Assembly (NCBI GenBank): GCA_019057375.1
Contig: DXJF01000130.1
Span: forward strand, 1-40,867
From: Candidatus Heimdallarchaeota archaeon
Lineage (GTDB): Archaea > Asgardarchaeota > Heimdallarchaeia > Heimdallarchaeales > Heimdallarchaeaceae
DNA length: 40,867 bases
Direction: 5' to 3'
Part shown: positions 3,224-27,158 of the stretch, one piece after another
How positions within the stretch are numbered: position 1 is the stretch's first letter
How the letters are laid out: each line of letters opens with the position of its first letter
Position numbers and translations under genes: made by a program
The notes under the pieces: model-generated
The model's database searches: none
What the model saw: the letters and a program-made list of their open reading frames with translations, nothing else
Told to the model about the DNA's origin: nothing

Positions 3224-4708
3224 TTATCCTTTAACATTACCTATAGGCTTAACTCTTACAATTGGATGACCAAGTCCAGATACTTTGAGAGCATTAATTA
3301 CTTCATCAATGTCTTTGTATGCAAATCCAGCTTCTTCTGCTAAACCTGGCATTGATGCTCCTTTTACGTATATCCCTTTTTCTCTCATTTTCTGTTGAAG
3401 AAAATCTCCCCTTATTTGCCTTTTTGCTTTGCTTCTACTCATTGTTCGTCCTGCACCATGAGCTGTTGAGCCAAAGCTTACATCCATTGCCTTTTGTGTC
3501 CCTGATAAGAGATAAGAACCAGTTTCCATGGATCCTCCAATGATAATGGGTTGTCCAATTTCCTTATATTCTTGAGGAATTTCAGGATGATTTGGTGGAA
3601 ATCCTCGAGTAGCTCCCTTTCGATGAACCATTAATTTCTTTTTCTCACCATCAATTCTGTGCTCTTCAATCTTGGCAATGTTATGAGCTACATCGTAAAT
3701 CAAATCTAATCCTAATTCATCTTCATCTTGTTTGAAGACTTCTGTGAAAACTTGTCTAACGTTATGAGTTATTATTTGTCGATTAGCATAAGCCATATTA
3801 GACGCACAACTCATAGCTGCAAAATAATCCTCTCCTTCTTTTGAGTTTATAGGAACACTGGCTAGTTCTTGATCAAGTACTGGAATATTATATTTGGTCA
3901 TTGCAGTTAAACAGTTTCTTAAGTAATCTGAAGCAACTTGATGGCCTAATCCTCTAGAACCACAGTGAATCATAACAGTAACTTGATAGTTTTTATTCAA
4001 ACCTAATTTTTTACCCTTCTCGGGGTCAAACAAATCTCCAGGTTTTACTACTTGTATTTCCAAATAATGGTTACCAGAGCCAAGTGTTCCTAGTTGTCTA
4101 AGTCCTCTACTCTGTGCTTTATTACTAACCTTTGAAGAATCTGCTTTAGGCATCTTTCCCTGACTTTCAATTCTACGTACATCTTCTTCTCTAGCATAAC
4201 CTTTTTCCAAACACCACTGTGCTCCGTCTTCTAGAACATTTTCAAACTCTGAACGAGATATATTTGCCAAATATTGGTCATGAGTTAGTTTAACCCCTAC
4301 TCCTGCAGGAACACGTCGAAACAGCTTGTCTACAAGCTCCTTAATCTTAGGTTTTACATCTCTTTCTTCTAAGGTTGTGGTGAGCATGCGTACTCCACAA
4401 TTGATATCAAAACCAACACCGCCAGGGCTAATTACTCCTTCCTCCATATCCATTGCAGCAACACCACCTATTGGAAATCCATATCCAACATGTGCATCAG
4501 GAAGAGCTATTGCATATTTCTGAATTCCAGGAAGGGTAGCTACATTGGTTATCTGATCTACAACTTTGCCTTCAAGTCCTTTTTTTAGAGCTGGAGTTAC
4601 AATCAATCTTGCAGGTACCCTCATACCCTTTTTGTATGATGTGGGGACTTCCCAAGTTGTTTCATCAATTTGTTTCATTGGAATGTTATTGCTTGACATT
4701 TTTCTCAA
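3224..4708 (-). CDS. rtcB: RtcB RNA-splicing ligase (3'-phosphate/5'-OH ligase)
   Basis: Motifs PDAHVGYGFPIGGV, GFDINCGVR, LGTLGSGNHYLE, HCGSRG, HRKGATR and STAHGAGR. Confidence 0.98.
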   Translation of the reverse strand: MRKMSSNNIPMKQIDETTWEVPTSYKKGMRVPARLIVTPALKKGLEGKVVDQITNVATLPGIQKYAIALPDAHVGYGFPIGGVAAMDMEEGVISPGGVGFDINCGVRMLTTTLEERDVKPKIKELVDKLFRRVPAGVGVKLTHDQYLANISRSEFENVLEDGAQWCLEKGYAREEDVRRIESQGKMPKADSSKVSNKAQSRGLRQLGTLGSGNHYLEIQVVKPGDLFDPEKGKKLGLNKNYQVTVMIHCGSRGLGHQVASDYLRNCLTAMTKYNIPVLDQELASVPINSKEGEDYFAAMSCASNMAYANRQIITHNVRQVFTEVFKQDEDELGLDLIYDVAHNIAKIEEHRIDGEKKKLMVHRKGATRGFPPNHPEIPQEYKEIGQPIIIGGSMETGSYLLSGTQKAMDVSFGSTAHGAGRTMSRSKAKRQIRGDFLQQKMREKGIYVKGASMPGLAEEAGFAYKDIDEVINALKVSGLGHPIVRVKPIGNVKG

Positions 4709-4808
4709 TGTAAAGAAATTGTTAGTTTTAATAAATCTCTTGGTTTATCAGAAAATATCTACAAAGGGATTATTTTTATTAGTAATTTATTTCACCTTTC
4801 TGAGTTCA

Positions 4809-5237
4809 ATGTTCAAATACAACATACTCTCTGAAGAAGTAAAATCAGATTTTGCTTTTGAAGTTAATGCAGATACCCTCTCTGAACTTTTCAGAGGTGC
4901 TGGAATAGCTATGATGGAAGCTATGGTAAACGTTAAAGAATTTAAGGCAAAACGCGTTTGGGAATTCAAAATCGAATCTGATACCCTAGATCTATTATTG
5001 TTCGATTTTCTAGGAGAACTAGTATTTGTTAAGGATGTTGAATCTGTTTTATTCAAAGACTATGAAATTAAAATCGAAGAAAATGATAAGTTCAAACTCT
5101 CATGCAAAGCTTTTGGTGATGATATTGATTATGAAAAATATGAGATATTAACAGATGTAAAAGCTGTTACTATGCACAATTTTGTCATAGAAAAAAGAAA
5201 TGATGAGTGGTATTGTCATATAATTTTAGACTTATAA
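4809..5237 (+). CDS. Archease (RtcB activator)
   Basis: From the ATG at 4809: SDFAFEVNADTLSELF, LLFDFLGELVF, DVKAVTMH and terminal IILDL, 142 aa. Divergent from rtcB. The ORF-track extension to 4566 overlaps rtcB and was discarded. Confidence 0.92.
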   Translation: MFKYNILSEEVKSDFAFEVNADTLSELFRGAGIAMMEAMVNVKEFKAKRVWEFKIESDTLDLLLFDFLGELVFVKDVESVLFKDYEIKIEENDKFKLSCKAFGDDIDYEKYEILTDVKAVTMHNFVIEKRNDEWYCHIILDL

Positions 5238-5377
5238 TACTGAGAATTCTATATTAGATTAGATTAACACTAAACAGAGGTATTTACCTCTCAAATCAGT
5301 AATATATCGGATTAATAATCTTTATAAACTAAACTTCTTCTCGTTAAAACAATCCTATAAATGATAGAGGAATTACT

Positions 5378-5800
5378 ATGGGTGACATAAGAGTAAAAGA
5401 CAAATATACTGTAAAAGAAGGACTTCTTTACACTAAAGAAAGTGAATGGGTTCTTCAAGAAGGAGACATCTGGATTTATGGCCTTAGCAATTATGCTAGT
5501 GTCGAACTAGGTGAACTTGCGTATGTAGAACTTCCTGCAGTAGGTGATACCTTCGGTAATGAAGATTCAATGGGTATTGTTGAAGCTCTAAAAGCTGTCG
5601 TTGATTTCTATTCTCCATTCGATTGCGAAGTTGTAGAAGTTAATTCAGATTTAGAAGATGATGCATCACCAATTACTGAAGATTGTTATGGTGAAGGCTG
5701 GATTCTGAAACTCAAAGCAACTGGTCCAATTGATCATCTATTCAATCAAGAAGATTACGTAAAGCTCATTGAGAAAAAGATCGAAGAAGGTTCTCACTAG
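5378..5800 (+). CDS. gcvH: Glycine cleavage system H protein (lipoyl carrier)
   Basis: Motifs LGELAYVELP, GIVEALKAV (lipoyl Lys), SPFDCEVVEVN and CYGEGWILK. Confidence 0.93.
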   Translation: MGDIRVKDKYTVKEGLLYTKESEWVLQEGDIWIYGLSNYASVELGELAYVELPAVGDTFGNEDSMGIVEALKAVVDFYSPFDCEVVEVNSDLEDDASPITEDCYGEGWILKLKATGPIDHLFNQEDYVKLIEKKIEEGSH

Positions 5801-5870: not shown

Positions 5871-6170
5871 GGAGAAAAATGACAGAAGGTTTTATGAGTT
5901 ATTTTCTCCTCAAATTCATTTTTTTGCTTTCAAGAAGATTCTTTCAAGACTCATCCTAAACCAGCGTAATAAAGGGTAGGCAAAGTAGCAAAACTGAACA
6001 ACATGAACATATAAACGATTCAAATTGTAACAGTTACTGGTTTTCTGGAACAGAGACATACAATGATGTAAATCTGTTCAAAGGAATCATCTCTTGTTAC
6101 AAGAGGTCACTCATTACCGAACCCGTCGAACTAATTAGATGACAGATTCTCGACCTAGCTCATCGAATCT
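5871..6170 (-). ncRNA. Putative omega/reRNA scaffold and right-end region of the TnpB element
   Basis: Stacked hairpins directly 3' of the tnpB stop: AGATTC/GAATCT (6144-6170), CTCTTG/CAAGAG (6091-6105), GAACAGA/TCTGTTC (6048-6079) and GGAGAAAA/TTTTCTCC (5871-5909). The position matches known TnpB omegaRNAs; the boundaries are unknown. Confidence 0.5.
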
Positions 6171-7737
6171 AGAGAGACGATGTATTCTTTGCAGAATCCT
6201 CAAGCCATTGACCTAAGGGCTGGAGACACTTGAACAGTGTTATCGAGTAGTATTCGTTTGTTAGTGTATCTCGAATACTGGTGTAGCCATGCATTGGTTT
6301 CAAAGCATATTGGATCAACCTTTTACCTATGTTCTTTGCCCCGTTCAGATCAGCATCCAGTTCATAGTTGCAATCTTGGCAGTTAAACTGTCCTTGTCCT
6401 GTACGAGTGGTGTTAAGTGAATTACACCTTGAACATATTTTCGAGGTCCAACTTTCTCCAATTGCTACCACTCGATGGGGTTCAAATCCATAGCGATTAA
6501 GTTTGTGCTGCAGTTTAGTGATAAAGAGGCGATAACACCATTTATGCAATCTACTTCGTAAGGATTTGTTTCCGCTACCACGGGGGTGACGTTTCCGAAT
6601 ATCCTTAGGATAGCCAACAGATACAAACAGATTATAACGCACCTTCAACTGGAGAATGAAATCAACTAGTTGGTTAACTGCATATCCCAGTTCCTGTTCT
6701 GTAACAGATCGAAGTCTTCTACGTAATTGGTAGAGTTTGACGTTAAGCTGTTTAGTGGGTTGGCCATTGTTGTTACTTGTATCTAACAACTTCTGAATAG
6801 ACTTAATCCGGTTCTTTAGTTGCCATATTTTTGACTGTCTTTCCTTATTGACGATGAAGCGGAGTTCATCCATGATTACTTTCCCAGAGGGGGTAAGTAA
6901 AACTGCGACAGCTGTCTTCTTCATTCCTAGATCAACGCCCAACACTGCTGGAGGTTGAGTAGATTGATAAAGAGGGACAGTATATTGGAGAGCGACGTGT
7001 GCCCACCACTGTTGTTCTTTGGATTTATATACTAGTTCTAATGACTTTATCTTCCCTAGTTTTAGCTTCTTTTCGTGATAAGGTGAATAAGCTAAAGGTA
7101 GCAACAGTCTATTATGATATCTTTTACCAGATCGTTTTGTATCAAGAGAGTCCCTTACTTCTAACCACATCTTAGCTACTGTATCTTTGGTAGTAGGAAT
7201 CAATTGAAACGTACCTCTATCTAGTAACCTTGTAAATAGTTTTCGGGGGATTTTTTTCTTGAATTGTGGTCTATTCAGCTCCTTTTCGGAAAGATCTTGT
7301 TGTGTTTTCCAGCTTTCATAAGTCCAGATAGATTTATCTCTACATTCGATGAATTCACCAGGGGAACAGCGAGGATAGCGTTTTTTCAAGTCATGGGGAA
7401 CAGTTGTTCGTAGTTTGTGTTGCGTTTTTCTAGATGTTGTCAAAGTCAATTTATCCAACAGGGAAGAATTTATTTTGCCATCTTTTCGTAGTATTTTCTC
7501 CTCGTTGTGTTTGATGATTCTGAGGTAGTCGTTGCAGATTCTAGTATCCCTTTCGGTAATTAATCTCAGCCTATCACACTCTTGAGCAACCATCAGTTCT
7601 GTCTTAATCCTGAGTTTGACAAGATTGTAGCCAGTAACTAATCGTGCTTGATGTGTGCTTGTAACAACTCTATCTTTCTCATATTTCTTGTTTTCATTTG
7701 TTGATTGTTTTTGTTTATTATTTGCTTCGTTTGTCAT
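6169..7737 (-). CDS. tnpB: TnpB RNA-guided endonuclease (RuvC plus Zn finger) with rearranged catalytic site
   Basis: RuvC-I VLGVDLG. The canonical RuvC-II Glu position reads VSVGYPKDIR. An alternative Glu lies in AIGESWTSKICSRC. Second CxxC is CQDC; RuvC-III is DADLNGAKNI. The likely start is the ATG at 7737, because the track start at 7851 lies in the end hairpin. Confidence 0.93.
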   Translation of the reverse strand: MTNEANNKQKQSTNENKKYEKDRVVTSTHQARLVTGYNLVKLRIKTELMVAQECDRLRLITERDTRICNDYLRIIKHNEEKILRKDGKINSSLLDKLTLTTSRKTQHKLRTTVPHDLKKRYPRCSPGEFIECRDKSIWTYESWKTQQDLSEKELNRPQFKKKIPRKLFTRLLDRGTFQLIPTTKDTVAKMWLEVRDSLDTKRSGKRYHNRLLLPLAYSPYHEKKLKLGKIKSLELVYKSKEQQWWAHVALQYTVPLYQSTQPPAVLGVDLGMKKTAVAVLLTPSGKVIMDELRFIVNKERQSKIWQLKNRIKSIQKLLDTSNNNGQPTKQLNVKLYQLRRRLRSVTEQELGYAVNQLVDFILQLKVRYNLFVSVGYPKDIRKRHPRGSGNKSLRSRLHKWCYRLFITKLQHKLNRYGFEPHRVVAIGESWTSKICSRCNSLNTTRTGQGQFNCQDCNYELDADLNGAKNIGKRLIQYALKPMHGYTSIRDTLTNEYYSITLFKCLQPLGQWLEDSAKNTSSL

Positions 7738-7805
7738 AAATTTCACTTCCTGAAATTGTTTCTTTGGAATAAACTTGGATACCCTTTTTGAAAAGTCATA
7801 ATCGA

Positions 7806-7850
7806 TGGTTCCTCTTCTAGTTTTAATATTTGAAACCAGTAGAGGAACCA
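7806..7850. other. Imperfect hairpin, candidate IS200/IS605 left-end subterminal palindrome
   Basis: TGGTTCCTCT (7806-7815) pairs perfectly with AGAGGAACCA (7841-7850), with further imperfect pairing inside. It lies about 70 nt upstream of the tnpB ATG. Confidence 0.65.
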
Positions 7851-8217
7851 CCGGTTGTACTACGTGTAAAATTGCTTCAGATTCTCAAAATGGAAATCCT
7901 GACAATCAACTTCTTCTCTTCTTTCAACTCCTTTTTCCTTTTAGGTGACAAGCGAAGAATTACAGGTTTGGTTGTAATTCTTGCCTATCGAGAATCTAGA
8001 AGGGTGTTGATATTATAAGCACCACAGAAATTTTGTGCCAAATCATTTTTATTAGTATGAGAATTTGAAAAGATTCATTAGATCAATTATTACTCAAATG
8101 ATAAACCAGTTCTCTTTTTACACAGAATAAAACCTGATCATTAGATGCTAAATTCTTTTCTTGAAGCACTTGTTTAATTAATTCATCTACTGATATCTTT
8201 GATTTTTCAAGAATAGC

Positions 8218-16747: not shown

Positions 16748-16902
16748 TTTTTAAACTCCAATAGATAATTATTTGGTTAGAAGAATGTTTAGGATTTAAT
16801 AAAAATTGCAGTATCAACAGAAAAAATAAATCTATATTTTTCATCTTTTTGAAATAATGATGTTCAAAAAAATTTATGAAGGAAATAATATAATAAAGAC
16901 TT

Positions 16903-19900
16903 ATGAAACGAAAAGCAATTATTGTTACAACTATCTTTCTATTTTCTTTGTTTATGTTTCAAATGAGTTCAATGATGATTATGACATCCATTGCTCAAAA
17001 TGACACTAATGTGGAAATAGAAATAATTACACAACCATCTTCTCTTCCAGAACAGCCCTTCATTGATTCGATGAGAACTTTTGTTTTGCATTTTGATAAA
17101 AAAGCAATGTTTAATAGCTTTGTTGATTCTTATAATCCAGTAGAAGAATTAACATTTTCTAATCTCAAAATGGTTGCTTTGGAGGATTATTTGAGTAAAA
17201 AGGATGAATATAGAAAAATAGACGGCGTAGATACCGTTTTAGATATTACAGATTCCAAATTTTACTTCTATGAACAACCAGAAGAAACTGAATATATAAT
17301 GTTAGATTCTTCAGGTGTGAAACAAACTCTTCAAACAAGAGACTTACTCAACATAGATGATCTTTGGTCTCTAGGTTATACAGGCAGTAATACTGTAGTT
17401 TATGACATAGATTCTGGGATATTTGAAGACCATCTCGATTTTGAGGAGAGAATACTGGATACAAGCCAATCATTCCTTTTGACAATATATGGAGCTCCAT
17501 TCAATGATTATTCAATCGACGATTTGAACGGTCATGGAACTCATACTGCTGGAATAGCAGCAGGTGCAGGAATCGCTAATGGAGAGAATATAGGAATGGC
17601 TCCAGATGCAGACATTCTAGTTGCAAAAATAGGTGGTTCTGGCTCCACAGTCTATGCTTTAGCTGGAATAGCCGCAATGGATCATGGTCTGACTATAGGT
17701 GTAGATGTTGTCAACCTCAGTTGGGGCGGGGGAGACAGTGAAGGAATGGATTTAACTGAAATTGCAGTAGAAGAAATGATCGCTCAAGGAGTGGTTGTTG
17801 CTGCAGCAGCAGGTAATGCGGGTGTAAGTGGTTTTTACACATTAGATTCTCCGGGATCTGCACCAAATGCAATAAGCGTTGCAGGAACAACAGTAACAGG
17901 TGGTATATATGGTGTTAGTTCAAATGGACCCACAGCGGAGGGCTATCTTAAACCAGATATTGCAGCTCCAGGTAGGGATATAATTAGTTGTGGAATTGAG
18001 AATCCTTCAGCTTACGTGACTGGAAGCGGAACTTCAATGGCAACTCCACATATTGCAGGTGGTGTAGCAGTGTTAATTGAAGCATTAAAAGATCAAGGAA
18101 TACCTTATGATGCTGGTTTAATTAAAGCAGCTCTTATGGAGTCAGCTGATCTTGGAATTAACAGTTACCTCAGCAGTGGTGCAGGACTCGCAAACTTTGG
18201 TACTGCTTTTACTAATATTCAATCTGCTCCCACTAATGGTTCTGGTTTCCCAGTTATTCTTTATGCACATCCATACTTCCCAATACTTGATTATACGAAC
18301 ATACCTCAAGGATTTCATGCAGAATTATATGTCCAATCAGTATCTTCAACTCCTTGGGAAGATTTAAATCCAGTTCTTAGTGGAAATATTACAACTATTC
18401 TGGATTTGAACACTACAGCAGTTACAGGACCATGGACAAAAAATTATTATTTGGCAATTAATGTTCCTGACAATGCAGCTTTAGGTCTTTACACAGGTAT
18501 TATTACTTATGAGACTGCTGCAGGTGTAACAACTACTACTCCAATAGAAATTACAGTTAAGGAAGGTAAAGGAAAAATACTTTATGCAAGGCTATTTACA
18601 GATTATGGAATAGATAATTTTCTTGGTCAGTATTATTATGCCATTGAGGATCTTCTAGCAAAGGGAATTGCTGTTAATGAGTATAGATTGCTTAACATAA
18701 CTGGAGAAGAAAACGTCATTACTGAAGATTTGTTAAATCAATATGATGCTATTTGGATACCAGATCCCTTTGAGTTGCGACTTGATGAAGCTTATACCAT
18801 TTCGGGTTATACAGAAATAACAGAAAGTGAAATTACGGCCATTCAAAATTACGTAAATGGTGGAGGAGGTTTGTTTATAGACTTCTTAGGTTTATCATCA
18901 CAGGAAACGCCTGTTGGAGATAGAAATCTTGGAACCAACATAACAAGATTAAATGAGCTCACTTCTATTTATGGAATTGAAGCTTCATATGATTTGTTTG
19001 AATTTGATGCTCCAGTAAAAATACCAGTAACTAAGACTCATGCTGTTACTGAAGGTGTCGATTACATGGATCATTATGGTACAACGTTAACTGTCACAGG
19101 TGATGCTATTTCTCTAGCAAAATATGCAAACAAACCAACAGTTGCTCTCTGGGAGAATTTAGCAGGAGGAAGAGTATTGGTTGCTTCAACTAATTTTCAG
19201 CTGGATACAGTGGGATATCTTAATTTGTACAACACTGGAACACAAAATGAGATTTTTACAATAAATGCATTCAATTGGTTAACTGCTAGAGAAAAAATCA
19301 CAGCAGTTTCCAGTGAAGATGAAACAGGTGTAGATTTTGACATATATTCACTTGATCCACTTGCAGATATTGCTGCTTCTGTTGAATTTGTAGAGCCAAC
19401 TGGATCTTCATTCCAATTTGTATCGTTAATTGATGTTGGTGGTGGGCAATATAGCTACAGACTTACTTATGCAGAAGAAGGTATCTACACATTCATTCTT
19501 GAATCTGCAGATGATAAATGGATTGGTGAGTACATATTTGATTCAAATCCACCAGTAATTACCTCTGGAACTTGGGCAAATTATACAGTCCCAGAATCTG
19601 CTAGATTGGATTTCAAGATTCAAGATACGATTACAGACATTATTACAACGAATGTAGAACTTAATGGTGGAAGCGTTAGCATATCTGGAACCGGAAAAGT
19701 GAGAACCTTTGTTGTATTAGTTTCTTCTCTAATTGAAGGAGATAACACATTGTATATCTATGCAGAAGATGCAGCGAGTAATATAATTGAAGCCACATAT
19801 ATTATTCCAACAACGAAACCAAAAGGAAGCCCAGTGAACACATTTTATGCAATATTAGGGCTGTTATCTATAGCCGCTCTAATTACTTTCTTAAGAAAAA

Positions 19901-23498: not shown

Positions 23499-24257
23499 TC
23501 AGATGCTCTGGACGTATTCCAATCTTTGTTCTACAGCTAACTGAGTGAGTTTTTGAATAGGTTTAACAATCAACCAAACTGAATCTGGTCTCTTATCTAT
23601 TCGCAATCTACTACTATCATCAAAATGCTCATCTCTTTTGGGAGATGTTAGGATAGAAAGCAATTCATTCCTTGCGTTTAAGCAACTTCCAGTTAATACT
23701 AAGTTTGCGGCTTTATCACTATGAATGGCACCTTCATCAAGTAGATTTTGGATAATATCTCTCTTATCAAGTCGTTCCTCAGCTGGTAAATCAGATTTGT
23801 TGATATAAGCAACTACAGGAATACTAGAACCAAAATTCTCACCTACTATTTCCTTAGCTTCCTTAATAATTGCCTTATTTTGCTCCTCTGCTGTTTTTTC
23901 GAAGTTCAAGAATAGTAGAACTGCATCGACACCTTTCATGACAATATCTCTTTGAACTTTGTGTCTTTCTTCGCCAGGAACTGTCCAGAGTTGGTATCGC
24001 AATCTATCAAAATTATTTCCTTTAAATGGAGGTGTTTGAAAGACACCTTGATCAAAAAATACTGTACGACCTGAATCATCTTGTATTTTTGTTAATGCCG
24101 AAACAATAGTTTTTGGATTCTCCATTCTTCTGAGTGCGTTGAAAACTGTCAACATGCTTGTTTTACCACTCATCGGAGGTCCAAACAGAACTATCTTAAT
24201 TGTTGGTTTTCCTTCCCTATCAACTGAAAAAAGGTTAGATAACTCTAGTTGACTCAT
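23499..24257 (-). CDS. MglA-like small GTPase, paralog 1
   Basis: G1 GPPMSGKT, switch-I SGRTVFFD (MglA DRTLFFD), G3 WTVPGE (MglA-type T-V-P-G) and G4 NKSD. Confidence 0.88.
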   Translation of the reverse strand: MSQLELSNLFSVDREGKPTIKIVLFGPPMSGKTSMLTVFNALRRMENPKTIVSALTKIQDDSGRTVFFDQGVFQTPPFKGNNFDRLRYQLWTVPGEERHKVQRDIVMKGVDAVLLFLNFEKTAEEQNKAIIKEAKEIVGENFGSSIPVVAYINKSDLPAEERLDKRDIIQNLLDEGAIHSDKAANLVLTGSCLNARNELLSILTSPKRDEHFDDSSRLRIDKRPDSVWLIVKPIQKLTQLAVEQRLEYVQSI

Positions 24258-24318
24258 AAGTATTTATTCAGTGAATTAGTATATAAAATTATACATAACT
24301 TTGTACATTTTTTTGGTG

Positions 24319-24326
24319 TTTAAATA
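24319..24326 (+). promoter_or_regulatory. Candidate TATA box for the structured RNA
   Basis: TTTAAATA lies about 22-26 nt upstream of where the structured region begins. Confidence 0.4.
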
Positions 24327-24347
24327 TAGTGATGTAATTTCTAATCT

Positions 24348-24810
24348 GAAGGATTGTAGACATGCACCAACTTTATGGTGATCCTCGGGTTTACATCCAA
24401 CAATCATGCAAAAGCAAACCGTCGTCCACTGAGTGTAGGAAAGTTGACTAATCTTGCCATAGGAGCGAGTAAGCTTGAGCGTTTTTTTTCTCTGGGTTTA
24501 TATATGAAAGTAAACATAGAAAGCTAGATGGTGTGTGCTTCAGCACTTACCTGTTTCGCAACTACCAAGTGGTTGTCCCTCAGTAAACTTACCATGAAAC
24601 GGGGAGCCTAGCTAGCTCTGTGCTGATAACCCACTAACTAACAAAGTCGTCATGACTTCCCCTCATCGCACGTGAGGGGACCCACTTAAACGACGGTTAG
24701 AAAGCCTCTGGCAAGTTTAACCAAGTTTCATAACGTGCGTAAGCATCTTTGCGTAATGTGCGGGGTAGGAGGGTATGTGGCGTCCCCATGATGTGCTCTA
24801 GGCACTTCTA
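24348..24810 (+). ncRNA. Unassigned large structured RNA of about 460 nt with a long-range pseudoknot
   Basis: ORF-free, GC-enriched intergenic stretch. Helix AACCGTCGT (24417-24425)/ACGACGGTT (24690-24698) is crossed by CTTGCCA.AGG (24453-24463)/CCT.TGGCAAG (24705-24715). At least 8 local stems. Frequent G-U pairs favour the + strand. Confidence 0.75.
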
Positions 24811-24888
24811 AAGAATTTGTACAAAATTCATGTCATAGTAAATGGTAGTTTATAAATGAAAAAAACGAGATTAGAAGAGGAAGTTCCA

Positions 24889-27087
24889 TCATTTACTTCT
24901 TCTTTTAATTGTTACAATTGATATACCAATACAGACAATAATTATTCCCATCCAGAATGAAAAATCTAATGAAGTTGTTGGAAGTGGAGAACCTTCAATC
25001 ATAAATGTATCAGAATCAACAGATTTTACAGTTCTACCCGCATATCTAAAACTAATTTTTATATGATGGTCTCCGAAGTACATACTGAGATCAATTAAGC
25101 CACTTTCCCAGTCATTTGTAGATGGATTATAAAGCATTGAAAATGCATCGACAGTTACTCCTTGTGAATCATATAAGAGAATCATCACAAGAACATTTTC
25201 TGAGAATGAATCCCATGCATCAAGTTGAGTGTAGCTTGCATTTCCCCTTACGTAAATTCCCGTTGATTCACTGTTCAAAGTGAAGGAAGGTTCTTCAACT
25301 GCTAGAATGTGATCAATATTAATCAGATCTACATGTGATTCACCATATTGTGATGATCCAGATGCGATAATTGACACATCATAAGTAGCTTCATCAAAAG
25401 ATTGCAAGGATAGTGTAATGTACCAATCAAGAGATACAGAATAATTCATAGCAAGAATTGTGTAAATTGTTGAGGACCCATCAAACTGGAATTGAACATA
25501 CACATCTACTCCACTTGAATCAGTAATAGGGGTTGAATTTTCATCTAGAATAACTACATTGTACAACGAAAAATTCCAATTTCCACTTACATAATTATAG
25601 CTAAGAGAATCTACTGTAAGAGGGCTACCTGGTAATAATGTAAAATCGATATAATCTGTAGTTCCCAAACCAAACTGATCATTCCCTGCCGAGATTATAG
25701 GTGTTGTTTCTGTCATCAAACTAGTTATTATATATACTTCATCTACAAGCGTTCCATTAAAGAATTCAACAATATCTGTATTTTGAATACTTTTAGTTAC
25801 TGTCCACCCATTCATGTCATGAACAGCGAAAGACATTCCCAAATAAGTTGAAGCTGGATCAGTTGGTTCAAACATAAGGTAATCAGGAGGTGAATTCAGT
25901 TTTGCAACATAAAGCCCATAAAACCGATTTAATTTATTAATTTCAGATGTTGGAACTGTTGAAATCAACTCAGAATCCATTGGAATGTCGAGATTAATAA
26001 ACCCGTATAATCCTCCACCGAATGATGTATCGTCTACATATAATGCAGTTGCCCAATTTAGAAACAAATCATTAAATTCTATAGTATATCCAACGTTTGC
26101 AAGAGCATTTTCAACACTAGGTGCTCCACCAGCCGTCTCATTGACTAAGAAGGTTACTGCATCAATCCCGTATTTCTCAGCTAAATAGAAAATAAAGAGA
26201 TAAGCTCCTCCATAATCAATACGTACATCCTTTCCACCTATGCTCTCATAATTCCAATATAATAGTGAGTCATCAACATTATGAGCAAAATAATCTCGTG
26301 CAAAAACTGTTAAATTATTGACTATATCATATCCATTGAGATATTTAGCAAGTTCAGCACAACCCTCATCAATCCACCAGAATTCATCTGTATCGTAATT
26401 AAAATGAATTAAATGTTGAAACTCATGAGCTAGAACCCCGTAAGTTGTAGAATAATCTACATAAACCATTTCTCTTTGGTTTGAAGTTCCACCAGTTCCT
26501 TCATTATTTGGATCAAAATACCCAGCAACTCCACCATCCAGATCAGATATTAGAATTGTTACATGAGAATCGTCATCAATATCTCCTAAAGTACCATTTG
26601 GATGTCCAAAGAAGAGAATATCATTTGGGTATATTTTTGTTTCAAATTCATCTCTCCAATCTTCTGCTTTTGCTTTTGCATTGGCTATTCCATTCGAAGA
26701 AATTAAACTATTCAAAACATAAACATAACTGTTTGCTCCAATAGCTAGTAATTTAGCAGATCTCTGAACATATGTATAAGGAAATGAAAGAAAGGAATCA
26801 ATTATCCAAAAATCTTGTACTTCATCTATAACATCTGTTTTGACTGGAACACTGAGTTTTGGTAAGTCAGAAACAGGTTGAGGAACTTCTGACAGATATT
26901 TGTATTTCAGAATTTGTGTGGGATTTGTAGGATCACTATTAAATAAATCATAAGCAATCTTTGCATAATCATTCTGCTCTGAATTAATTTCACTGTCATT
27001 TCCTAAAGTGGCATAGGAACTCCCTAAGAGAACTATGAATGCTAAACTAATACTAAAGTAAGTTATTTTCCTCGATCTTTTATTCAT
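24889..27087 (-). CDS. Secreted, C-terminally anchored zinc metallopeptidase (M30/hyicolysin-like zincin)
   Basis: VLAHEFQHLIH...WIDEGCAELA and YGGAYLF motifs; N-terminal signal/TM; C-terminal TM plus KRRSK. The likely start is the ATG at 27087. Confidence 0.85.
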   Translation of the reverse strand: MNKRSRKITYFSISLAFIVLLGSSYATLGNDSEINSEQNDYAKIAYDLFNSDPTNPTQILKYKYLSEVPQPVSDLPKLSVPVKTDVIDEVQDFWIIDSFLSFPYTYVQRSAKLLAIGANSYVYVLNSLISSNGIANAKAKAEDWRDEFETKIYPNDILFFGHPNGTLGDIDDDSHVTILISDLDGGVAGYFDPNNEGTGGTSNQREMVYVDYSTTYGVLAHEFQHLIHFNYDTDEFWWIDEGCAELAKYLNGYDIVNNLTVFARDYFAHNVDDSLLYWNYESIGGKDVRIDYGGAYLFIFYLAEKYGIDAVTFLVNETAGGAPSVENALANVGYTIEFNDLFLNWATALYVDDTSFGGGLYGFINLDIPMDSELISTVPTSEINKLNRFYGLYVAKLNSPPDYLMFEPTDPASTYLGMSFAVHDMNGWTVTKSIQNTDIVEFFNGTLVDEVYIITSLMTETTPIISAGNDQFGLGTTDYIDFTLLPGSPLTVDSLSYNYVSGNWNFSLYNVVILDENSTPITDSSGVDVYVQFQFDGSSTIYTILAMNYSVSLDWYITLSLQSFDEATYDVSIIASGSSQYGESHVDLINIDHILAVEEPSFTLNSESTGIYVRGNASYTQLDAWDSFSENVLVMILLYDSQGVTVDAFSMLYNPSTNDWESGLIDLSMYFGDHHIKISFRYAGRTVKSVDSDTFMIEGSPLPTTSLDFSFWMGIIIVCIGISIVTIKRRSK

Positions 27088-27158
27088 AAAAAGTGACCTC
27101 TTTAGATTATATGTGACAAATATCATTAAAAATGTTCACAATCAAGCAATAATTCTAG

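Follow-up and report, generated by a model that had tools for sequence, protein, structure and literature searches.

The ORF-free gap in the stretch of Candidatus Heimdallarchaeota DNA analysed here (40,867 nucleotides of contig DXJF01000130.1, referred to as the window) holds two nested non-autonomous elements: an outer element A, present in two parts (24290–24422 and 24741–24837), and an inner element B (24423–24740). Each of them has probably been reduced to a promoter and the scaffold of a TnpB guide RNA (omega-RNA or reRNA), which is proposed to be used in trans. Direct observations are the nesting, ends in common with other elements, TATA boxes kept between copies, folds with covariation, a guide-proximal pseudoknot, a pair of empty and filled sites and intact genes for candidate effectors. 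A first-pass annotation had described the gap as a single RNA of about 460 nt, for which a new large archaeal RNA class was considered; no support for such a class was found, and two nested elements of known type stand in its place. Its other suggestion, a stand-alone guide-RNA scaffold or a non-autonomous element, was essentially right.

The gap extends over 24258–24888 (631 nt, the ~630 nt noted at first pass) and is without an ORF of more than 50 aa; the G+C enrichment noted at the same time was reproduced (0.41–0.52 over 24400–24800 vs. 0.29–0.37 in the surrounding DNA). It is flanked by a minus-strand gene for a small-GTPase-like protein (23499–24257; weak Roc/Ras matches) and by a minus-strand ORF of 745 aa (24889–27126), which had been named a metalloprotease and gave no Pfam match at E≤0.001. 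Rfam gave no match at the gathering score in the whole window, and at E≤10 for 24200–24950 nothing but noise, located beside the feature or at its border; neither a tRNA nor a tmRNA was found by ARAGORN. The view that the sequence fits none of RNase P, SRP, tmRNA and group I/II introns was thereby borne out. The folding energy of the 476-nt stretch used as a query was no better than that of dinucleotide shuffles (z −1.4 on the plus strand and −1.2 on the minus strand).

A BLASTN search of the same and related genomes, as recommended in the first-pass annotation, returned repeat copies as well as orthologous loci that lack B. When searched against 41 related genomes, the 476-nt query split into separate repeat families: positions 1–83 and 399–476 of the query are contiguous in G009:C105, G013:C169 and G011:C92, which have the unique flanks of the window on both sides and are thus orthologous loci without the middle part. 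At these three loci (L056, L057 and L058) the 24290–24422 part is joined straight to 24741–24837. Elements A and B are separate repeat families, which differ in copy number and distribution. Since the orthologous loci lack B, it entered a pre-existing A after the lineage had split from the three sequenced relatives. The intact target of the relatives reads GAACCGT-AAGCAT (the hyphen marks the junction; ACTGT in G013), and B is positioned just 3′ of ACCGT, inside one strand of a stem of the fold of A.

The left part of A (24290–24422, plus strand) starts with the left inverted terminal repeat (24290–24307; TA followed by TACATAAC-TTTGTACA), contains the TATA box TTTAAATA (24319–24326), has its first RNA hairpins from ~24348 and ends in ACCGT. 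This box, located ~25 nt before 24348, is the TATA-like box reported at first pass. The right part (24741–24837, plus strand) consists of a hairpin remnant, the hairpins GGGTATG/CGTCCCC and GTGCT/GGCAC and the right inverted repeat, which ends in CATGTCATA. Fourteen further copies of A could be aligned end to end and define a unit of ~250 bp; the right part was also considered as the right end of a larger element, and this was rejected because all of the copies examined (14/14) are complete ~250-bp units. The ends are ~25-bp imperfect inverted repeats (TATRACATGnnTTTTGTACA; ~20/25 positions match by eye) with TA on both sides. One-base variants of the TATA box were seen in two A copies. The consensus fold of A contains 11 covarying pairs; the pairing of 24357–67 with 24793–800, put forward earlier as a contact between the two ends of a single RNA, is absent from the consensus fold of intact copies. 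Compared with its orthologues, A of the window has a 5-nt deletion in the enclosed hairpin. Nothing was found in Rfam at E≤1 in three loci with intact A copies.

A covariance model of A matched the 3′ ends of ~420-aa tnpB ORFs (DVNAAYNIL...GVGGYVMYP) in the genome of the window (G000) with 34–54 bits, and alignment of the DNA revealed direct homology (AAAAGCGAnCCGnAAGCA ... GGGGTAGGAGG). On the strength of this homology, A is read as a second gene-less omega-RNA element, unrelated to B. The ~420-aa tnpB elements of this genome at C66:~4299–5700 and C124:~16900–18342 carry terminal inverted repeats of 21–25 bp (TTTGTCATGTTGTCATGTTAA) with a CATGTCA motif like that of A; their ends are symmetrical and not of the IS605 or IS607 type. 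These inverted ends fit published work, according to which certain lineages of TnpB are carried by transposons that have symmetrical ends (PMC10691335). No transposase was identified for A or for the tnpB elements on C66 and C124.

Element B (24423–24740, plus strand) is a 318-bp, ORF-less, multi-copy element with sharp ends; in G013, G011 and G009 the orthologous locus is without it. Eleven copies from ten genomes were aligned; their common ends lie directly after ACCGT on the left and at the close of ACGTGCGT on the right. ACCGT, the target motif to the left of B (24418–24422, plus strand) and the presumed TAM, forms one stem strand in intact A; it precedes 10 of the 11 aligned copies, and the extract of the eleventh begins at CGT. 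All aligned copies that reach the right end stop in TTTCATAACGTGCGT, with unrelated sequence beyond. The left end (24423–24481, plus strand; CGTCCACTGAG..AAAGTTGACTAATCTTGCCA) matches the left ends of the full-length copies on C92, C145:66703 and C144 of this genome; ~37 nt of the left end that are present in other copies are missing from the copy in the window (alignment A1). The three nucleotides CGT occur at both junctions of B and once in the empty site, and are ambiguous between the junctions; they fit a GT/CGT crossover core and, equally, an IS605-style insertion 3′ of ACCGT.

Two further copies of B are present in this genome (C65:8485–8773 and one divided between the end of C49 and the start of C40). 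By using a covariance model of the 5′ domain, copies of the B type were detected in G041 and G045, which represent a second genus of the family, and, within the genus itself, in 15 of the 24 other genomes; this model gave no match in 30 genomes sampled from other families. Such mini-elements are numerous in some genomes, with up to 12 matches to the 5′ domain in G008 and 9 in G005, and also occur in G022. Both the left and the right ends of B are common to protein-coding elements. In another species and at another locus (L103; G012:C119:1–140), a right end of the family of B adjoins a different copy of A, with the junction at the identical position and ACGTGCGT followed directly by AAGCATCC. 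This could be due to chance given the requirement for ACCGT, to homing by recombination between A copies or to movement of an A::B composite. Targeting of A was considered on the basis of the two independent B-in-A junctions (window and G012:C119) and is not claimed; by a rough estimate from the ACCGT requirement and ~100–150 right-end copies, two such junctions are compatible with chance.

Within B, a T8 tract (24482–24489) is followed by a TATA box of its own (TTTATATA, 24497–24504, plus strand), which is the same in 9 of the 11 aligned copies and has one base changed in G008 and G017. Downstream of this box ~215 nt are conserved, and the RNA is predicted from archaeal TATA spacing to start near 24524–24530. 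The first ~125 nt form a folded, B-specific 5′ domain (24527–24650, plus strand) with a hairpin (24535–24546), a stem (24550–57/24596–603) enclosing a second one (24558–64/24570–76), and the conserved single strand GTCCCTCAGT. These pairings, seen at first pass as GTGC-TTCA-GCAC, CCTGTTTC/GAAACGGG and GCAACTA/TGGTTGT, are all present and are kept by compensatory changes in related copies; the proposed AGCTAG/CTAGCT helix failed, as its C>A variants are mismatched in the alignment. The changes were found in a diverged second subfamily (G021, G002, G005 and G012), both in the hairpin and in the two stems; across the two subfamilies, seven pairs in two of these three helices are affected. When the structure of B was specified explicitly, 96% of cells were paired and 11 pairs had changed on both sides; this was reached by none of 500 shuffles, and slid controls gave 35–43%. 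Each match to the 5′ domain that was compared with right-end coordinates adjoins a right-end copy, a few short partial matches having been left out.

The 5′ domain was not found in the protein-coding parents of B, in which the full model aligned to the 3′ ~90 nt only, and a low-stringency BLAST search for it in the parents gave nothing significant. Because the ~125 nt are absent from the 3′ ends of the parental ORFs, the RNA of B is not simply the parental omega-RNA. One invariant single strand of the domain (TGTCCCTCAGT(AAA), 24574–24587) has an exact same-sense match of 11–14 nt in the middle of the ORF in all seven 640-aa ORFs (~1569–1582 of the 2.8-kb extracts of full-length elements; BLAST E about 1), which is probably a chance match.

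The last ~85 nt of B (24656–24740, plus strand) make up the right-end module, an omega-RNA-like scaffold core, which is almost invariant within the genus. It contains a hairpin (24658–65/24673–80), the loop of which (CGCACG, 24667–72) pairs with the 3′ end (CGTGCG, 24734–39) to form a pseudoknot. The hairpin had been noticed before as TCCCCTCA/TGAGGGGA; it exists, and it never varies, so it cannot be read for covariation. The loop and the 3′ end do vary in distant relatives found via the protein (CACACG/CGTGTG, CGCATG/CATGCG, TGCACG/CGTGCA, CGCATAC/GTATGCG and CGCATGC/GCATGCG): in relatives down to 38% protein identity, five of the seven pairs of the pseudoknot covary and 97% are paired, in an alignment that was fitted to the model, which favours pairing. 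The scaffold is intact in every copy, with its pseudoknot and a sharp end beside a variable flank. From its position, the guide of the RNA of B is predicted to be the first ~16–20 nt of this flank (24741–24760, plus strand), which here belong to A; the copies diverge right after ACGTGCGT. No other copy of intact A, the sole type of target for this predicted guide, was found in the G000 assembly.

The right ends of seven elements of ~2.1 kb in G000 match the last ~85 nt of B (24656–24740) with 86–94% identity. They are located at C65:~38.5–40.66 kb, C102:~37.4–39.57 kb, C92:2154–~4300, C21:9111–~11250, C145:~64.6–66.79 kb, C145:90646–~92800 and C144:5572–~7700, are 72–84% identical to one another in DNA sequence and all carry an intact ORF of 642–667 codons. 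The stop of this ORF lies inside the hairpin TTCCCCTCA..TGAGGGGA of B, ~22 nt into the right-end module, and the similarity to B ends sharply after ACGTGCG(T). The left end ACCGT..ACTGAG..AAAGTTGACTAATCTTGCCA is common to B and three of the seven, and in the same three a TTTAAATA box upstream of the 640-aa ORF aligns with TTTATATA of B. The other four (C65:40573, C102:39488, C21:9111 and C145:90646) lack the left-end segment ACCGT..ACTGAG..AATCTTGCCA, and their left ends appear to have been truncated or replaced. Along the 640-aa ORFs the conservation profile lacked the clear rise towards the 3′ end that a scaffold embedded in the ORF would produce.

The 640-aa product (P0001; L021:419–2347, minus strand) was assigned to the Pfam family PF07282 (Cas12f1-like_TNB; 29.9 bits vs. 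a cut-off of 26.3) and matched the NCBIfam model guided_TnpB/Cas12f2 weakly. It aligned to PDB 8hr5 (E 1e-5) over RuvC-II, the zinc finger and RuvC-III, and the Glu of RuvC-II is aligned. In RuvC-III (residues ~614–622, N-T-H-D-N-A-A) a His takes the position of the catalytic Asp of 8hr5, with an Asp one residue later; this residue, H617, is invariant in an alignment of 12 sequences (A6). Because of the His at the usual Asp position, nuclease activity of the protein is only putative. The homologues of P0001 (n=141) come nearly all from Heimdallarchaeota MAGs, and relatives of ~45% identity occur in Thorarchaeota. A third TnpB-like ORF (560 aa; Cas12f1-like_TNB, E 8e-15) is encoded in the window at 6169–7851 on the minus strand, 17 kb away; its DNA is unrelated to A or B.

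In relatives, ~10 places have a Resolvase gene (~200–220 aa) that precedes a right-end copy by ~2 kb in the same orientation; its product has MerR-HTH and Resolvase domains, and in L084 the left-end sequence of B extends over the start of this serine-recombinase gene. From this arrangement the autonomous parent of B is IS607-like, and B is, as judged from these sequences, a deletion derivative of a Heimdallarchaeal IS607-type element that encodes a MerR-HTH serine recombinase and the 640-aa TnpB-like protein. Derivation of B from an IS200/IS605 (Y1) element was rejected because none of the 25 genomes of the genus gave a match to Y1 TnpA (PF01797), against 6 of 14 controls. No IS607-type recombinase lies beside any of the seven G000 copies, and B is also without it; as Y1 TnpA is lacking too, no enzyme to account for this insertion was found in the 89%-complete assembly. 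Intact ORFs at 72–84% identity and with no adjoining recombinase suggest long-term selection on the protein independent of transposition.

The mechanism proposed for B is drawn from published work (PMC10691335; 10.1101/2023.03.14.532601; 10.1101/2023.11.20.567912). TnpB guides sit just outside the right end of the transposon and stand-alone omega-RNAs function in trans (PMC10691335); omega-RNAs are frequently encoded by PATE-like elements (10.1101/2023.03.14.532601); IS607 has a target motif identical with the TAM and neither inverted ends nor a target duplication (10.1101/2023.11.20.567912); and TnpB and Cas12 guide RNAs have as their hallmark a pseudoknot in which the nucleotides directly 5′ of the guide take part (PMC10097598). 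That cutting of the empty site favours retention or homing of the element has been shown experimentally for TnpB of IS605 and IS607. Transcription of B would begin near 24527, driven by the TATA box inside the element, and the transcript would cross the right end into ~16–20 nt of the flank (24741–24760) as the guide. The RNA would be loaded in trans by the 640-aa TnpB-like proteins of the seven intact copies elsewhere in the genome, the complex would recognise ACCGT plus a match to the guide, that is, the empty (B-less) site, and cutting of this site would favour retention or homing of B; the element itself would have been moved by a serine recombinase supplied in trans. A canonical tnpB gene of ~420 aa is the likely source of the RNA of A, which would correspond to the 3′ end of the gene; this RNA would be broken here, and the transcript of A would probably end at the T8 tract of B.

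It is conceivable, if unlikely, that the 5′ domain is an added functional module and defines a distinct class of trans-acting omega-RNA, either by contacts with the N-terminal lobe, which is enlarged in the 640-aa His-variant TnpB, or through a fold switch in which GTCCCTCA and TTCCCCTCA compete for TGAGGGGA. If this were true, the nuclease would serve mainly these mini-elements, of which some genomes have many.

Three other explanations were weighed against guide-RNA elements used in trans. That A and B are plain decaying transposon relics without RNA function, conserved through recent copying and through the needs of a recombinase for DNA sites at the ends, is rather improbable. This explanation would account for the deletion in the left end of this B and for the broken state of this A, and draws on the near-invariance of the right-end 85 nt within the genus, which leaves covariation there with little to say, and on the end motifs ACCGTCGT/ACGACGGT and CTTGCCA/TGGCAAG, which resemble conserved DNA sites; compensatory changes were nevertheless found in the 5′ domain of B (between subfamilies), in the loop-to-3′-end pairing (in relatives of 38–60% identity) and in A, and these point to selection on base pairing and not on sequence alone. 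A TATA box is moreover kept at a fixed distance in nearly all copies, the exceptions being one-base variants in two copies each of B and A. If the RNA of B is functional, it might serve not as a TnpB guide but as a regulator that acts, for example, on the expression of tnpB or tnpA or on transposition, or as a decoy that soaks up TnpB. The 5′ domain, conserved, structured and absent from the parental elements, would suit such a role, and GTCCCTCA of this domain could rival TTCCCCTCA for pairing to TGAGGGGA and so give an alternative fold; the full right-end scaffold, the pseudoknot and the sharp end by a variable flank are, however, kept in every copy, as a guide RNA needs, and no significant antisense match to parental genes was found. 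A regulator or decoy is accordingly regarded as quite improbable.

The single ~460-nt pseudoknotted ncRNA of a new class, closed by long-range helices, that was described at first pass is now very improbable. The complementarities on which it was built (24417–25/24690–98 and 24453–63/24705–15) are real, and a TATA box does precede 24348; yet the central 318 nt are missing from the orthologous loci, the two halves come from distinct repeat families that differ in copy number and distribution, the fold energy is no better than that of shuffles, and a T8 tract and a second promoter lie inside the stretch, so that each of two elements has its own promoter. Both long helices pair the left end of B with its right end, and their left arms are upstream of the second TATA box (24497–24504), which had been missed. 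The closing helix AACCGTCGT/ACGACGGTT stands as a complementarity and not as a conserved pairing, since its left arm varies in 5 of the 11 copies without a change in the partner; the same applies to the crossing helix CTTGCCA/TGGCAAG, in which single changes give mismatches. Their arms are better read as conserved DNA motifs of the two ends of B. The pseudoknot of the two long helices is thus without covariation, and it is the different pseudoknot of hairpin loop and 3′ end that covaries.

With two nested guide-RNA elements as the preferred reading, a candidate for a new large archaeal RNA is removed and accounted for by known biology. Asgard genomes of the Heimdall group are seeded with promoter-bearing, protein-less guide-RNA elements of at least two TnpB lineages; because they are GC-rich, highly structured and ORF-free, such mini-elements mimic novel ncRNA genes and should be expected by annotators of Asgard genomes. 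The locus also offers a natural before/after pair, empty in three species and filled here, that fixes the element ends, ACCGT as the target motif and the guide predicted for a 640-aa relative of TnpB. Stand-alone omega-RNAs and PATE-like omega-RNA elements have already been published; particular to this locus are an arrangement with one gene-less element inside another, orthologous sites that are cleanly empty, and the B-specific 5′ domain.

Among known systems, the HEARO/IscB omega-RNA, of which the first-pass annotation was reminded, is likewise a transposon-borne guide-RNA scaffold. The kinship was not upheld: no HEARO match was obtained at E≤10, the proteins linked to A and B are TnpB-like and not IscB, and the variable flank of B is at the 3′ end, whereas the guide of HEARO is located at the 5′ end. 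As in the omega-RNA of ISDra2 TnpB (cryo-EM; PMC10097598), the last scaffold nucleotides by the guide form a pseudoknot with an upstream segment; unlike in ISDra2, the upstream partner is a hairpin loop, the tnpB stop being part of the same hairpin, and there is neither sequence similarity nor an Rfam match, the remaining ISDra2 scaffold not being comparable to that of B by sequence. With IS607, as represented by the IS607 IStron of C. botulinum (10.1101/2023.11.20.567912), the parents of B share a MerR-HTH plus Resolvase TnpA upstream of a tnpB-like gene, an apparent lack of terminal inverted repeats and of a target duplication, a fixed target motif of a few nucleotides in the left flank, and a scaffold that overlaps the 3′ end of tnpB and terminates at the right end. 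They differ in that the TnpB-like protein has 640 aa and a His at the RuvC-III Asp position, that the target is ACCGT and not TGGG, and that most copies, including all seven in this genome, are without the recombinase; B lacks both genes.

The closest likeness is to the stand-alone (effector-less) omega-RNAs of OMEGA systems (Altae-Tran et al. 2021, as summarised in PMC10691335) and to PATE-like elements, which are ORF-less IS200/IS605 derivatives encoding omega-RNAs (Meers et al. 2023, 10.1101/2023.03.14.532601). Both B and A are ORF-less and multi-copy, were evidently mobilised and have ends or sequence in common with effector-encoding elements of the same genomes; an empty site can be demonstrated. 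The scaffold is kept and abuts a variable flank, and its use by TnpB in trans is presumed by analogy. In contrast to PATE-like elements, B comes from an IS607-type (serine recombinase) element and not from IS605, and has its own archaeal TATA promoter together with an extra, covarying 5′ domain of ~125 nt not found in the parents; the ends of A are inverted terminal repeats, and one element lies inside the other.
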